Below are positions 10,146 through 13,735 of a DNA stretch of 37,308 nt, one piece after another. Position 1 is the stretch's first letter; every line of letters starts with the position of its first letter. The translations under genes were made by a program, and so were the position numbers. The stretch lies in IMG/VR virus record IMGVR_UViG_2684623059_000004. One strand, 5' to 3'. Under the pieces are notes generated by a model. The model ran no database searches. It was not told where the DNA came from and worked only from the letters and a program-made list of their open reading frames with translations. The DNA comes from a virus (taxonomy: Duplodnaviria; Heunggongvirae; Uroviricota; Caudoviricetes).

Positions 10146-10712
10146 TCAGGGCGATTCATTGTTCTCATTCGCCGGAAATTTTCTATAAATGGTAGAAACG
10201 CCCACATCAAAAATCAGTGCAATACGCTGTCTTGATTCTCCGGCCTCGAGTAAACGTCCAATCTGTGCCCACTGTTCGGTAGTCAACTTAGGACGGCGTC
10301 CACCTACTCTGCCTTTGGCGCGAGCTGCAGCCAGCCCTGCCCTGGTACGTTCAACTATCAGTTCGCGTTCCATTTCAGCCAGGGCCCCCATGACATGAAA
10401 AAAGAAACGGCCCATTGGGGTACTGGTATCAATACTGTCAGTCAGGCTTCGGAAATTCACGCCACGCTGGCGCAGATCTTCTATCAGCGTAACGAGATGC
10501 CGCATACTGCGCCCCAACCTGTCCAGCTTCCAGACAACCAGTGTGTCACCTGCCGATAGTGTCCTGAGCAGTTTTTTAAGCCCCGGTCTGTCGGACTTAG
10601 TGCCACTGATTTTGTCCTCAAAAATCCGCTCACATCCCGCGCAGTTCAGTGCATTACGTTGCAAATCGGTGTTCTGGTCATTTGTTGACACGCGTACATA
10701 GCCAATAAGCAT
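10146..10712 (-). CDS. serine DNA invertase (Gin/Cin/Pin/Hin family)
   Basis: N-terminal MLIGYVRVSTNDQ with catalytic serine, C-terminal helix-turn-helix; near-identical in pattern to Cin/Gin as I recall them; start taken at the Met of MLIGY. Confidence 0.85.
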   Translation of the reverse strand: MLIGYVRVSTNDQNTDLQRNALNCAGCERIFEDKISGTKSDRPGLKKLLRTLSAGDTLVVWKLDRLGRSMRHLVTLIEDLRQRGVNFRSLTDSIDTSTPMGRFFFHVMGALAEMERELIVERTRAGLAAARAKGRVGGRRPKLTTEQWAQIGRLLEAGESRQRIALIFDVGVSTIYRKFPANENNESP

Positions 10713-10769
10713 GATCAATCCCCTGAATAAAAACCGGGGATGATGCCAGTTAGTCGTAATCGCTGCATT

Positions 10770-10793
10770 TTCTTAAACGTTGGTTTGGGAGAA
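10770..10793. repeat. invertase crossover site, left
   Basis: TTCTTAAACGTTGGTTTGGGAGAA, imperfect dyad; inner half GGTTTGGGAGAA is the exact reverse complement of the inner half of the right site. Confidence 0.6.
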
Positions 10794-11132
10794 GCGGCCA
10801 AATTGCCTGCGATTAGTGGCTCTTTATCATCATCTGGCTGGATAAAAATCCCTGTTATAGAGGGGAAGTCTTTTATTATCCAATGGGGAAGAATCGGACC
10901 TTCTGATAGTAAAACTGGTGTTGCAACAGGAAGTTATCCTATTGCTTTTCCAAATTCTGCATTTATGGCATTTATTGCTGAAAAAACCGCAGTATCCACA
11001 GGCCCAATAGGTATTAATTCCTGGGGAGTGTCCGAACTAACAAAAACAGAATTAAAGGCCATTTGTGCTGCAAGGACTATATCAACTTCAGCCGCAACTG
11101 AAACAGGTGATTTTCTGGTCCTGGGATATTGA
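10770..11132 (+). CDS. alternative tail-fibre C-terminal segment, currently unexpressed
   Basis: reading frame enters through the crossover site encoding GLGE, in the same codon phase as in H; no independent start needed after inversion. Confidence 0.55.
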   Translation, partial: FLNVGLGEAAKLPAISGSLSSSGWIKIPVIEGKSFIIQWGRIGPSDSKTGVATGSYPIAFPNSAFMAFIAEKTAVSTGPIGINSWGVSELTKTELKAICAARTISTSAATETGDFLVLGY

Positions 11133-11602
11133 GCTTCCATAAGGATTATAAAATGTCGAGCATAATATACTACAGCTCTATAAATAATGCATTTTACCCT
11201 GAGCATTTGAAACAAGAATATATTAAATCTAATTCTTTTCCAGCAGATGCAAAACCCGTTAAATATTCTGTTTTCGAAGAATTTGCACTTAAACCAGCAC
11301 CAGAAGGAAAATACAGGTGCGTTGGTGAAGATGGAATGCCATCATGGGCAGATATTCCACCACCAACACATGAGGAACAGATTGCCGCAGCCGAATTGAA
11401 AAAGCAGCAATTGATTAACCAGGTCAACGAATACATGAACAGTAAACAATGGCCCGGTAAAGCGGCTATTGGTCGTCTGAAAGGTGAGGAACTGGCGCAA
11501 TATAATTTGTGGCTGGATTATCTGGACGCACTGGAACTGGTTGATACCTCCAGTGCTCCAGATATTGAATGGCCTACGCCTCCGGCAGTTCAGGCCAGAT
11601 GA
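11129..11602 (+). CDS. alternative tail-fibre assembly chaperone
   Basis: 157-aa ORF with the same C-terminal signature as G (LDYLDALELVDTSSAPDIEWP versus LDYIDAVTATDTSTAPDVIWP); convergent with G. Confidence 0.65.
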   Translation: MSFHKDYKMSSIIYYSSINNAFYPEHLKQEYIKSNSFPADAKPVKYSVFEEFALKPAPEGKYRCVGEDGMPSWADIPPPTHEEQIAAAELKKQQLINQVNEYMNSKQWPGKAAIGRLKGEELAQYNLWLDYLDALELVDTSSAPDIEWPTPPAVQAR

Positions 11603-12176
11603 CATCTGGCGCGGTGCTGGTATCAGTTGCCGTCACCGCGTCAATGTAATCCAGCACAGCGTTAAGGCGGGTTGTTTCTGCCTGCGTCAGCTTCCGCCCG
11701 GCCTGTAATTTAAGTTGAATCAGACTGATAGAAGCCATTGCAGCATCAATCAGCGACTGGCGCTGTGCTTCTGCCGCTTCTACTGCGGCGCTATGCTGTG
11801 CCTCAGTATCGGTCACCCATTTCTCACCATCCCATTTATCGTATGGCGTTAACGGTGCGAGAGTGGTTGTTTTTTCGGGATAGTCGCCTGGTGCTGTGAT
11901 TTCTTTGGCATCTCCCGTTTCGGTGTTATAGACAATTTCACCGCGATGGTCTGGCACATATTCCCATGAGTTAAAATCTGCTGAGCGGCAGATAGCATAA
12001 CCAGCTTTATGTGTAACTGGCGCATCTAAACAAGAACATGCCGGGATACCGACGCCAACAGCAAGATATTCAGTTGATGTAGAAATATATTCCCGCGTTT
12101 CACCATCATAATTATAAACGGTAATATCTCCCGCCTTTGTGGCGATGAGTTCCTTATTTAATATAGCTTTCTCCAT
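11574..12176 (-). CDS. G: tail-fibre assembly chaperone
   Basis: 200-aa ORF immediately downstream of H. Confidence 0.8.
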   Translation of the reverse strand: MEKAILNKELIATKAGDITVYNYDGETREYISTSTEYLAVGVGIPACSCLDAPVTHKAGYAICRSADFNSWEYVPDHRGEIVYNTETGDAKEITAPGDYPEKTTTLAPLTPYDKWDGEKWVTDTEAQHSAAVEAAEAQRQSLIDAAMASISLIQLKLQAGRKLTQAETTRLNAVLDYIDAVTATDTSTAPDVIWPELPEA

Positions 12177-13735
12177 CAGGCAGCCCTCACGATATAATTA
12201 AAGGCAATGTTACGGGGTCGATTTTCGTTTGCAGTTGGAACAATTCTTGAAGCATCAAGGCCAATCACTTTTGGGTAAACAGCGCCGTCTGCTCTTTCTG
12301 TCACCATACTTCTGGTTAAGGAGAAATAACTATTGTTTGTAGAGGGACTCAATGGCACTATGGCCCCCTTAAACGAGCCTGCTGTTTCCCATATTGAATA
12401 ATTTTCAGTGTTTACAGTTCTGAACTCACCATAGATATTACGTATGGCATCGCCCTGAGCTGATAATATTGCCCTCCCCGTATCCATACCACGTCCGTCA
12501 TCCCAGCCACGAATAAACTCACCACGTAAATCAGGCAATTTATTTGTCGGGTAAGCCTTTGCCAGTTCCGGGTATTCTTCAGCAGAAAATGCTGCACCGT
12601 TGCATTTCAGCCAGCCTGTTGGCGGAGTGGCGGAAGGCCACGGAACAGGCACACCAACGGGTAATGCCGAACCTTCTCCCAAACCAAGGTATGTGAGAAG
12701 ACCAGATACATCCTTTCCGCTCAAATTGGTAAGCGTATTGTCCAGCGGTTGTTTACCTGCCAGCGCATTAAGCATTGTCGTGGCAAAGTTCGGATCATTC
12801 CCCAGTGCCGCCGCCAGTTCGTTCAGTGTATCCAGTGCCGCAGGTGCAGAACCCACCATTCCTGCAATCGCCGATTTCACAAAAGCCGTAGTGGCAATCT
12901 GTGTATTGTTGACCGACTGCGCCGCAGTAGGTGCTGTTGGCGTTCCGGTGAGTGCCGGACTCGACAGCGGCGCTTTTAGTGCCAGCGCATTGTTAATGGT
13001 GGTACTGAATTTCGGGTCATTGTTAATGGCTGCGGCAATTTCTTTCAGTGTGTCCAGCGTGGCTGGCGCACCGTTAATCAGAGCAGTAATAGCGGCCTGA
13101 ACAAACTCAGTGGTCGCAATCCGCGTGGTGTTATTTCCTGCTGCAGGCGTCGGCGCTTTTGGTTCTCCGGTAAATGTCGGATTATGTTTCTGCGCATACT
13201 GGGTATGAGGATCTTGTGCGGCAATGTGGTTTCTCATCTGGTCATCCACATACAGCTTTAATTCCAGGACTTCATCATCCACGTATTTACGGGTTGCCAG
13301 CACTACAGCAGGGTCGATTTTCAGGGTGATATTGTCCGTACTGCTGGTAATCAGCACCATGCGCACGGTCTGGGTGCGCCCGCTGCCTTCAGCCAGTTGC
13401 GGCTTATAGCTTTCCGGGCAGTTGCCCACGGCAATCAATGCCCCGGACTCATCAAACAGGCCCACTTCACGTATCCACCAACCGCCCTCGTTTTCAGGGA
13501 TCACCTGTTCAGCAATAATCTGGCTGCTGTTCTGCGGGTCGATATAAAGCATATTCAGCGCAGCCCGGCGTTTCTCATTTACTAATGCTGTCTGCTTTGC
13601 GTCCGGCGTTGGCAATGTTCCGCCGCCATCGCCGACCGCCATATGGGTAATTTTTAAAGGCACACCGAGCGCGGCGGCGCTGGCAAGTTTCGCCGCGCCA
13701 ATATCCGTCAGCAGGGTATAAAATTTTGTGCTCAT
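12176..13735 (-). CDS. H: tail fibre protein
   Basis: 519-aa ORF; the crossover site lies inside it at the constant/variable junction. Confidence 0.85.
   Translation of the reverse strand: MSTKFYTLLTDIGAAKLASAAALGVPLKITHMAVGDGGGTLPTPDAKQTALVNEKRRAALNMLYIDPQNSSQIIAEQVIPENEGGWWIREVGLFDESGALIAVGNCPESYKPQLAEGSGRTQTVRMVLITSSTDNITLKIDPAVVLATRKYVDDEVLELKLYVDDQMRNHIAAQDPHTQYAQKHNPTFTGEPKAPTPAAGNNTTRIATTEFVQAAITALINGAPATLDTLKEIAAAINNDPKFSTTINNALALKAPLSSPALTGTPTAPTAAQSVNNTQIATTAFVKSAIAGMVGSAPAALDTLNELAAALGNDPNFATTMLNALAGKQPLDNTLTNLSGKDVSGLLTYLGLGEGSALPVGVPVPWPSATPPTGWLKCNGAAFSAEEYPELAKAYPTNKLPDLRGEFIRGWDDGRGMDTGRAILSAQGDAIRNIYGEFRTVNTENYSIWETAGSFKGAIVPLSPSTNNSYFSLTRSMVTERADGAVYPKVIGLDASRIVPTANENRPRNIAFNYIVRAA
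12674..12699. repeat. invertase crossover site, right, inside H
   Basis: TTCTCCCAAACCAAGGTATGTGAGAA; encodes LLTYLGLGE in H. Confidence 0.6.

Follow-up and report, generated by a model that had tools for sequence, protein, structure and literature searches.

The stretch of DNA analysed here, a window of 37,308 nucleotides, carries the marks of a P2-like phage, with Pfam matches to Phage_tail_fib, Tail_P2_I and the replication protein Phage_GPA. Its tail and baseplate genes follow the P2-type order H, I, J, W, V, FI, FII, so that the fibre gene H lies downstream of homologues of P2 I, J, W and V, and at the DNA level it is 91-94% identical to Peduoviridae phage records. We regard the host element as a P2-like (Peduoviridae) prophage, apparently complete.

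Its tail-fibre region contains the gene of a Pin/Gin-family serine DNA invertase (10146..10712, reverse strand) of 188 amino acids with the Pfam domains Resolvase (3.5e-53) and HTH_7 (1.5e-15). Translation most likely starts from the ATG at 10712, which yields the N-terminus MLIGYVRVS comparable to Gin, Cin and Pin, and not from the TTG at 10718 given in the list of open reading frames. The protein aligns end to end with the Gin structure 3uj3 (E = 4.6e-92), contains the motif YVRVSTNDQ and shares 83% identity with PinE of e14, 76% with Cin of P1 and 74.5% with Gin of Mu; the values are 97.3% for the enzyme of Escherichia coli DG341-1 and 100% for that of EH09-18-41. As determined by alignment to Gin, the catalytic Ser9 and the wild-type Met114 are intact and His106 is also conserved. 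The position equivalent to Gin 114 is occupied by Met in the window's invertase and by Val in the crystallized Gin chains 3uj3 and 4m6f, a replacement that we take to be the engineered hyperactive substitution. Judged by these residues, the enzyme appears to be of the wild-type, regulated form, as opposed to a hyperactive variant that is independent of Fis.

A putative Fis-dependent recombinational enhancer (10623..10694, reverse strand) is situated in the invertase gene, towards its 5′ end. This element comprises nucleotides 19-90 of the gene and aligns without gaps to the annotated enhancer at nucleotides 19-90 of P1 cin, with 78% identity compared with 64% for the following 72 nt. Two Fis-like 15-mers, TGTCAACAAATGACC and GCGCGGGATGTGAGC, have their midpoints at 10683 and 10635, with a spacing of 48 bp, and lie about 122 bp from the middle of the left crossover site; almost the same 15-mers are present in cin, gin and pinE, and those of DG341-1 are identical. 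The strict Fis consensus (GNNYRNNWNNYRNNC or GNNNAWWWWWTNNNC) is matched by one of the two candidates, the distal one, and the enhancer assignment therefore rests mainly on the alignment to the P1 annotation. Switching would probably depend on Fis and on this enhancer. A promoter and terminator scan of positions 10000-13900 returned five promoter-like sites against 5.9 expected and was uninformative on the invertase promoter.

Two crossover sites of 26 bp each accompany the invertase, the left one at a distance of 68 bp from it. On the forward strand the left site (10768..10793) reads TTTTCTTAAACG-TT-GGTTTGGGAGAA with its central dinucleotide at 10780-10781, and the right site, located within H (12674..12699), reads TTCTCCCAAACC-AA-GGTATGTGAGAA with the dinucleotide at 12686-12687. 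Each consists of 12 + 2 + 12 bp; the two are inverted relative to each other and their TT and AA dinucleotides match on inversion. The inverted-repeat arms (10768-10794 and 12673-12699) measure 27 nt, are 81% complementary and lie 1878 nt apart, and they include a perfect inverted core, TTGGTTTGGGAGAAG, of 15 nt at 10780-10794 and 12673-12687. The right site fits the reverse complement of cixR, TTCTCTTAAACC-AA-GGTATTGGATAA; both sites share their core with the e14 pix site adjoining pinE, follow the cix/gix pattern and are identical to the sites at an inversion breakpoint between the isolates DG341-1 and DG342-2. By sequence, they are classic Din-family crossover sites of 26 bp with a pix core. 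The site 16-mer, searched with up to three mismatches, occurs in the 37-kb window at these two places only, with 0 and 1 mismatch and a chance expectation of 0.39, and the scan of the window found no third site that would have pointed to a multi-state, shufflon-like system. An earlier, sequence-only reading had described a Gin/Cin/Pin-like serine invertase beside a segment of about 1.9 kb with inner site halves that are exact reverse complements. Pfam and the 74.5-83% identity to Gin, Cin and PinE support the former, the perfect 15-nt core the latter; its right site stands unchanged, and its left site has to be moved from 10770 to 10768, the full sites being 26 bp. All of the elements that it named were recovered where it had placed them or a few bases away.

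Between the central dinucleotides extends the invertible segment of 1904 bp (10782..12685; 1878 bp between the repeat arms), which holds two convergent cassettes, each composed of a fibre tip and its own chaperone. The constant N-terminal part of H (12686..13735, reverse strand) is P2 H-like, comprises 350 residues and matches Phage_tail_fib at 3.6e-65. It is continued by the expressed variable tip (12176..12685, reverse strand), 169 residues counted from the motif GLGE, which is of the collar type (Pfam Collar, 1.2e-14), matches the short tail fibre 9cuy (2.9e-25), the T4 gp37 tip 2xgf (8.8e-18) and T4 gp12 in the PDB, and is 57% identical to the tip of e14 StfE. The expressed chaperone (11574..12176, reverse strand; 200 residues; Caudo_TAP, 2.8e-32), a homologue of P2 G and e14 TfaE, is 92% identical to TfaE, and its start overlaps the stop codon of H. 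On the opposite strand, the silent alternative tip (10782..11132, forward; 116 residues from GLGE) belongs to the gp53-like, R-pyocin-foot fold (Gp53-like_C, 2e-09). Searching the PDB with its single sequence gave no match, and profile and fold searches were needed: the profile search identified the R1/R2 pyocin fibre tips (1.4e-11) and AP22 gp53, and an AF2 model with a pLDDT of 80 was matched by Foldseek to 6cxb/6ct8 with a TM score of 0.70. The accompanying TfaP-like chaperone (11153..11602, forward; 149 residues; Caudo_TAP, 1.5e-35) covers profile positions 3-130 of 131, so that both chaperones are full-length Caudo_TAP proteins, and is 52% identical to e14 TfaP; its start is most likely the ATG at 11153, in agreement with the annotation of RefSeq relatives, and not the TTG at 11129. 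The two tips are unrelated, with 20% local identity and distinct fold families. An 18-nt inverted repeat with a gap of 108 nt is located between the 3′ ends of both chaperone genes.

GLGE is encoded at both crossover sites, with its codons in the same phase, and inversion in silico creates an open reading frame for a 466-residue protein H′ (...LLTYLGLGEAAKLPAISG...LGY*). The sequence-only reading had anticipated this in-frame fusion as well as the current expression of the 12176..12673 variant with G, which correspond to the collar-type tip and the TfaE-like chaperone. It had also placed the alternative chaperone downstream after a flip, which remains valid, although the start at 11129 that it assigned has to be replaced by 11153. 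The comparison with receptor-binding domains that it called for now yields the T4 gp37/gp12 collar matches for one C-terminus and the R-pyocin foot and AP22 gp53 for the other; both tips correspond to receptor-binding modules.

We propose that the tail-fibre region of this P2-like prophage houses a two-state switch which operates by site-specific inversion and belongs to the Din (Gin/Cin/Pin/Hin) family; that it works is very nearly certain in our judgement. The invertase would bind the two inverted pix-type sites, and strand exchange at the central TT/AA, probably with host Fis bound to the enhancer, would flip the 1.9-kb segment. The crossover would fall within the codon of Leu350 of H and, since the inner half-sites both encode GLGE in phase, the 350-residue H shaft could join either tip, with the matching chaperone directly downstream. 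In the state seen in the window, H (519 residues) would be made with the collar-type tip and the TfaE-like chaperone, and in the flipped state H′ with the R-pyocin-foot/gp53-like tip and the TfaP-like chaperone. Particles released from lysogens would then carry one tip or the other and recognize different surface receptors, most likely different lipopolysaccharide structures. We infer the change of host range upon flipping and likewise the rate of switching.

Public data contain both orientations of the window's exact sequence. By exact-sequence look-up, the 519-residue H of the window state occurs on 66 public contigs and the 466-residue H′ on 29, and the 238-bp E. coli contig JAXUFY010000213.1 matches the junction predicted for the flipped state at 100% identity from end to end. 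When viral contigs were scanned for the exact junctions, one IMG/VR contig proved to carry both. The E. coli isolates DG341-1 and DG342-2 have genomes of equal length (5,067,659 bp), and the only difference between them is that the homologous segment is inverted, its breakpoints falling within the 15-nt core; the sequenced flanks are 100% identical. Furthermore, the segment exists as stand-alone contigs of 1876-1878 bp that end at the repeats, such as the ‘plasmid’ NZ_CP148330.1 of 1878 bp, 100% identical to 10795-12672, and a 1876-bp Salmonella contig with 97.3% identity. Such assemblies breaking at the repeats, together with contigs that comprise a junction only, imply mixed cultures. The left junction of the flipped state was found unbroken in 903 complete E. 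coli genomes. Its right junction, searched as a synthetic sequence, had no contiguous match among 5,426 complete RefSeq E. coli genomes, of which only about 7-9 contain the cassette pair, all in the window's orientation. A homologue search returned no full-length fusion of H to the gp53-like tip because the cluster representative of this fusion is a 41-residue fragment. That a P2-type H might never be expressed with the gp53-like tip was considered and rejected, as the 466-residue fusion is on record. The sequence-only reading had itself named the finding of a single orientation, or of inactivating changes in the invertase, as evidence against a switch. The contigs with H′, the 238-bp junction and the DG isolates contradict the former, and relative to active homologues Ser9 and Met114 are intact. 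These identical and near-identical elements elsewhere suggest that switching also takes place in the window's own strain.

The uniform orientation of the cassette pair in the few complete RefSeq genomes would also be compatible with a frozen relic, in which sites and invertase are merely inherited, the switch of the window's genome is idle and the orientations in the databases reflect ancient events elsewhere. We consider this highly improbable: the invertase reading frame is intact, and an enzyme 97.3% identical to it is encoded in DG341-1, whose segment is inverted relative to a near-identical isolate at sites identical to those of the window. An ancient event would, moreover, have left accumulated differences, whereas the flipped junction and protein match at 100%, and the repeat-broken assemblies and junction-only contigs argue for populations that are currently mixed.

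Alternatively, RecA-mediated homologous recombination at short inverted repeats, or horizontal replacement of cassettes, might have generated the two arrangements instead of the adjacent invertase. The gp53-like tip is indeed joined at GLGE to several other, unrelated fibre N-termini as well, and cassettes therefore move between phages; the inverted repeat between the chaperone genes could likewise be invoked. However, the perfect repeat at the crossover sites measures just 15 nt, which is below the length for efficient RecA exchange, and the breakpoints coincide with canonical 26-bp invertase sites with matching central dinucleotides. The inversion between the DG isolates is clean, with flanks that are 100% identical, and a like architecture has been shown experimentally to be invertase-driven in Mu, P1 and e14. 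We consider such an origin of the two states highly improbable, and we retain the invertase-driven switch.

Although the sequence-only reading had likened the device to the Mu G and P1 C segments, and its layout is indeed collinear with Mu G, the closest relative by sequence comparison is Pin with the P segment of e14 in E. coli K-12. There, pix sites and PinE serve StfP/TfaP and StfE/TfaE in a segment homologous to that of the window. Window and e14 have an identical crossover core, TTCTCCCAAACC-AA, the invertase-proximal outer half-site starts with CGTTT in both, a collar-type and a gp53-like tip are joined at GLGE, and the 18-nt inverted repeat found between the chaperone genes of the window recurs at the corresponding place in e14, again with a gap of 108 nt. 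The segments are also of similar size, with 1797 nt between the repeat arms in e14 and 1878 nt in the window. The two differ in tip sequence (the collar tips are 57% identical, the gp53-like tips 35%) and in the tip at the expressed position, which is gp53-like in K-12 e14 and of the collar type in the window. Whereas the constant part in the window is a 350-residue shaft of the P2 H type, e14, a defective lambdoid element, provides a 97-residue StfP N-terminus.

Mu G/Gin and P1 C/Cin share with the window the order and orientation invertase, site, Sv′, U′, U, Sv, Sc, the 26-bp sites of one pattern, the in-frame logic of constant and variable fibre parts, and an enhancer located towards the 5′ end of the gene for the invertase, which is putative in the window. 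In the collinear Mu G region (gin-Sv′-U′-U-S) about 67-68 bp separate the start of the invertase gene from the boundary, as here. Yet the Mu and P1 invertases are less similar to the window's than PinE is (74.5-76%), their segments are larger (3-4.2 kb) with larger, unrelated tips, and the phage backbone is a different one. The core dinucleotide is GA in gix and AA in the window as in cix, hix and pix, and in P1, unlike the window, cixL is located at the 3′ end of cin. P2-like E. coli prophages (EPEC E2348/69; Wadgaonvirus 500465-1, Cartapus and Fels-2) carry an invertase and segment between FI and H, as does the window. Their cassette content varies, and in one EPEC prophage there are three repeats with four variants, compared with the two sites found here. 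Inversion in e14 and in P2-like prophages of EPEC was reported by Goldberg et al. (2014; PMC4272514) from whole-genome sequencing and PCR.

The switch is real, functional and of a known kind, its inversion in E. coli P2-like prophages has already been published, and it opens no new biological question. It represents a textbook bet-hedging device, by which phage released from a lysogen bear one of two receptor-binding tips. In the homologous P segment of e14, a Pin-type invertase has recently been reported to act in trans and to generate a chimeric fibre protein that prevents T2 from adsorbing (PMC12529663). The window's segment in one of its orientations, or cross-talk of its invertase with other pix-flanked segments in the same genome, might analogously yield a tip protein that the lysogen expresses and that keeps out superinfecting phages, which we think very unlikely. 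If true, the switch would serve the lysogen in addition to varying the host range of the virions. H belongs to the late genes of P2-like phages, and this counts against exclusion by a lysogen-expressed tip. The findings also bear on host-range prediction for P2-like phages and the tailocins derived from them. As regards annotation, the 130-residue open reading frame labelled ‘gp53-like domain-containing protein’ represents the silent half of the fibre gene and not a separate gene. For quality control of assemblies, the 1878-bp ‘plasmid’ under which the segment is deposited in RefSeq is spurious.

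The tail-fibre locus of this P2-like prophage is almost certainly a functional Pin-type invertible switch, in which inversion would give the P2-type fibre H one receptor-binding tip or the other, each with its own chaperone. H itself (519 aa, 12176-13735, minus strand; Pfam Phage_tail_fib and Collar) follows gene P2 I (Pfam Tail_P2_I) and precedes the current chaperone (200 aa, 11574-12176, minus; Caudo_TAP). On the plus strand lie the silent tip B within a 130-aa ORF (10740-11132; Gp53-like_C on 10782-11132) and the alternative chaperone (149-157 aa, 11129/11153-11602; Caudo_TAP on 11153-11602), flanked by a minus-strand invertase (188-190 aa, 10146-10712/10718; Resolvase and HTH_7). 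Apart from P2 I, these elements had been named in a sequence-only reading, some with starts that need correction: the invertase probably begins at ATG 10712 and the alternative chaperone, as annotated in relatives, probably at ATG 11153 rather than 11129. RefSeq labels the 130-aa ORF as a stand-alone 'gp53-like domain-containing protein'. Its ATG (10740) sits in the spacer separating the invertase from the left crossover site, and since its first ~14 residues differ freely across homologues (MMPVSRNRCIFLNV, MMPFACYFCIFINV, MMPSARYFCIFINV), comparison of these sequences suggests that the start is fortuitous and the ORF simply the silent tip. The chaperone genes converge, their 3' ends overlapping by 29 bp (11574-11602), and carry there an 18-nt inverted repeat (11512-11529 and 11638-11655, 108-nt gap). 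The identical repeat with the same spacing lies between tfaP and tfaE of e14, a defective lambdoid element of E. coli K-12; it reflects a C-terminal motif conserved in both chaperones.

The top inverted repeat of 9500-14000 has its arms at 10768-10794 and 12673-12699, separated by 1878 nt. It contains the left 26-bp site, TTTTCTTAAACG-TT-GGTTTGGGAGAA, and the right one, TTCTCCCAAACC-AA-GGTATGTGAGAA, which share a perfect inverted core of 15 nt and whose central dinucleotides agree after inversion of one of them. Both sites had been recognized before, the left one with a start that we move to 10768 to give 26 bp. Because the site 16-mer, with up to three mismatches, occurs at only these two places in the window (0.39 expected by chance), the arrangement is a two-site, two-state one. 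The right site, translated from the coding strand, gives ...L-L-T-Y-L-G-L-G-E...; its crossover dinucleotide falls within the Leu codon just ahead of GLGE, and the left site encodes G-L-G-E in the same codon phase. In-silico inversion of 10782-12685 yields H', an uninterrupted fusion of 466 aa (...LLTYLGLGEAAKLPAISG...LGY*), and places the second chaperone gene 20 nt after it, in accordance with the in-frame exchange of tip and chaperone postulated earlier.

Five independent lines of evidence indicate that the segment truly inverts. The E. coli isolates DG341-1 and DG342-2, of equal genome length (5,067,659 bp), have a P2-like prophage in common with 100% identical flanks of 2.7-2.8 kb on either side of a 1616-bp segment that lies in opposite orientations and is otherwise 99.94% identical. 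Both breakpoints fall within the 15-nt core, the 26-bp sites equal those of the window exactly, the invertase is 97.3% identical to ours, and the two isolates differ in the length of H (463 against 519 aa). In an E. coli draft assembly, the 238-bp contig JAXUFY010000213.1 matches the in-silico flipped right junction at 100% over its full length, splitting on the window at 12673/10777; its length, about 2k-16 at k = 127, would fit a junction unitig from a mixed-orientation culture. Exact protein look-ups retrieved predicted H' from 29 public contigs (the longest of 5.3 Mb), window H from 66 and the silent 130-aa ORF from 68. The DNA between the arms has also been assembled alone, as the 1878-bp 'circular plasmid' pZ1323HEC0475-5, 100% identical to 10795-12672. 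None of the four CDSs annotated on this entire RefSeq record (NZ_CP148330.1, E. coli Z1323HEC0475) is a replication gene; the record is the invertible segment, wrongly assembled into a circular replicon; a second stand-alone copy is a 1876-bp Salmonella contig, and several further homologues lie on contigs of 1.8-2.0 kb. Both junctions occur on the 34.5-kb contig IMGVR_UViG_2698536450_000021, which runs along the window from 15181 to 12673, through the flipped segment from 10777 to 11798, and then unflipped from 13356 to 1. Part of H and part of the segment thus occur in two copies, probably through chimeric assembly from a mixed-orientation culture and less likely through a real duplication. 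Of the complete E. coli genomes, 903 have a contiguous flipped left junction (invertase, site, collar tip) and 47 a contiguous right junction of the window type. Inversion phase variation of e14 and of EPEC P2-like and Mu prophages has been shown by whole-genome sequencing and PCR (PMC4272514).

These data disfavour a frozen relic, a switch no longer active, since the invertase is intact, the sites are identical and flipped products are found at 100% identity. An origin of the two orientations by RecA-driven inversion, or by horizontal replacement, is disfavoured as well, because the repeat is only 15 nt and the breakpoints are clean and at canonical sites. For the Pin-type switch, homology and the unrelated folds of the two tips point to a change of host range upon inversion. 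An extra phage-exclusion role, by likeness to PinQ/StfE2 (PMC12529663), would be speculative and is unlikely because H is a late gene.

The invertase aligns end to end with Mu Gin structures (3uj3/4m6f, E = 4.6e-92) and carries the active-site motif YVRVSTNDQ. Its residue at the position of Gin 114 is Met, the wild-type one; the crystallized Gin chains carry Val there, an engineered hyperactive substitution. Its global identity is 83% to e14 PinE, 76% to P1 Cin and 74.5% to Mu Gin. The Cin enhancer is annotated in P1 at cin nt 19-90, with which invertase nt 19-90 (10623-10694) align gap-free; identity in this stretch is 78% to cin and 72% to gin, against 64% and 56%, respectively, over the next 72 nt. 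Two Fis-like 15-mers with centres 48 bp apart are near-invariant across cin, gin, pinE and the window invertase, consistent with a putative Fis-dependent enhancer.

The sites fit the pattern of annotated P1 cixL and cixR and Mu gix, and share their core exactly with the e14 pix sites. The elements run collinear with those of Mu, in the order invertase(-), site, tip'(+), chaperone'(+), chaperone(-), tip-H(-); in Mu, 67 bp separate the gin start from the G boundary, compared with 68 bp here. Mu G and P1 C were named previously as counterparts, but among known systems the nearest is the P segment of e14 and its invertase PinE. The locus is new neither as a type nor, in essence, as an individual element: its proteins recur many times in NCBI, and phage records label a 'DNA invertase' here.

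Tip A, which H currently carries (169 aa, counted from GLGE), contains the phage tail-collar domain and matches the solved structure of a short tail fibre (9cuy, 2.9e-25) as well as the T4 gp37 tip 2xgf (8.8e-18) and T4 gp12; the e14 StfE tip is 57% identical to it, and TfaE 92% identical to its chaperone. A single-sequence search of the PDB with silent tip B (116 aa) gave no match. Its homologue profile matches the C-terminal foot of R1 and R2 pyocin fibres (1.4e-11) and AP22 gp53, structures on which a predicted AF2 model (pLDDT 80) superposes with a TM of 0.70. In proteins of 206-244 aa, tip B follows at least four other N-terminal fibre parts, one of them e14 StfP-type, with the joint exactly at GLGE; the crossover site is thus also a modular joint for tip exchange between phages, reportedly a property of this invertible-segment family long known from Sandmeier's work.

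Elsewhere on the prophage, a 629-aa reverse transcriptase (25981-27870, minus; PADLOC RT-Toprim_I-C, 1.5e-217; Pfam RVT_1) adjoins the Q/P packaging genes, at the P2 'old' hotspot, and seems to be a retron-type defence gene against phages; Rfam at gathering threshold gave no msr/msd RNA nearby. Between it and replication gene A, a 243-aa ORF (28172-28903, minus), with neither Pfam nor PADLOC match, may be a further hotspot cargo gene. Directly downstream of gene A lies a Dam-like D12-class N6-adenine methyltransferase (31959-32876, minus; Pfam, 2.1e-76; PADLOC orphan MTase, 8.2e-111). A 311-aa FRG-domain protein (16245-17180, plus; PADLOC candidate defence family PDC-S15, 8.5e-32) is inserted in the direction opposite to that of the tail and baseplate genes on either side. 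The host flank contains an Asp-Al_Ex/TrkA_C permease gene (936-2621) and the RybB sRNA (2701-2779, 106 bits); as P2 D-like tail genes begin at ~3166, the prophage appears to be integrated beside rybB.
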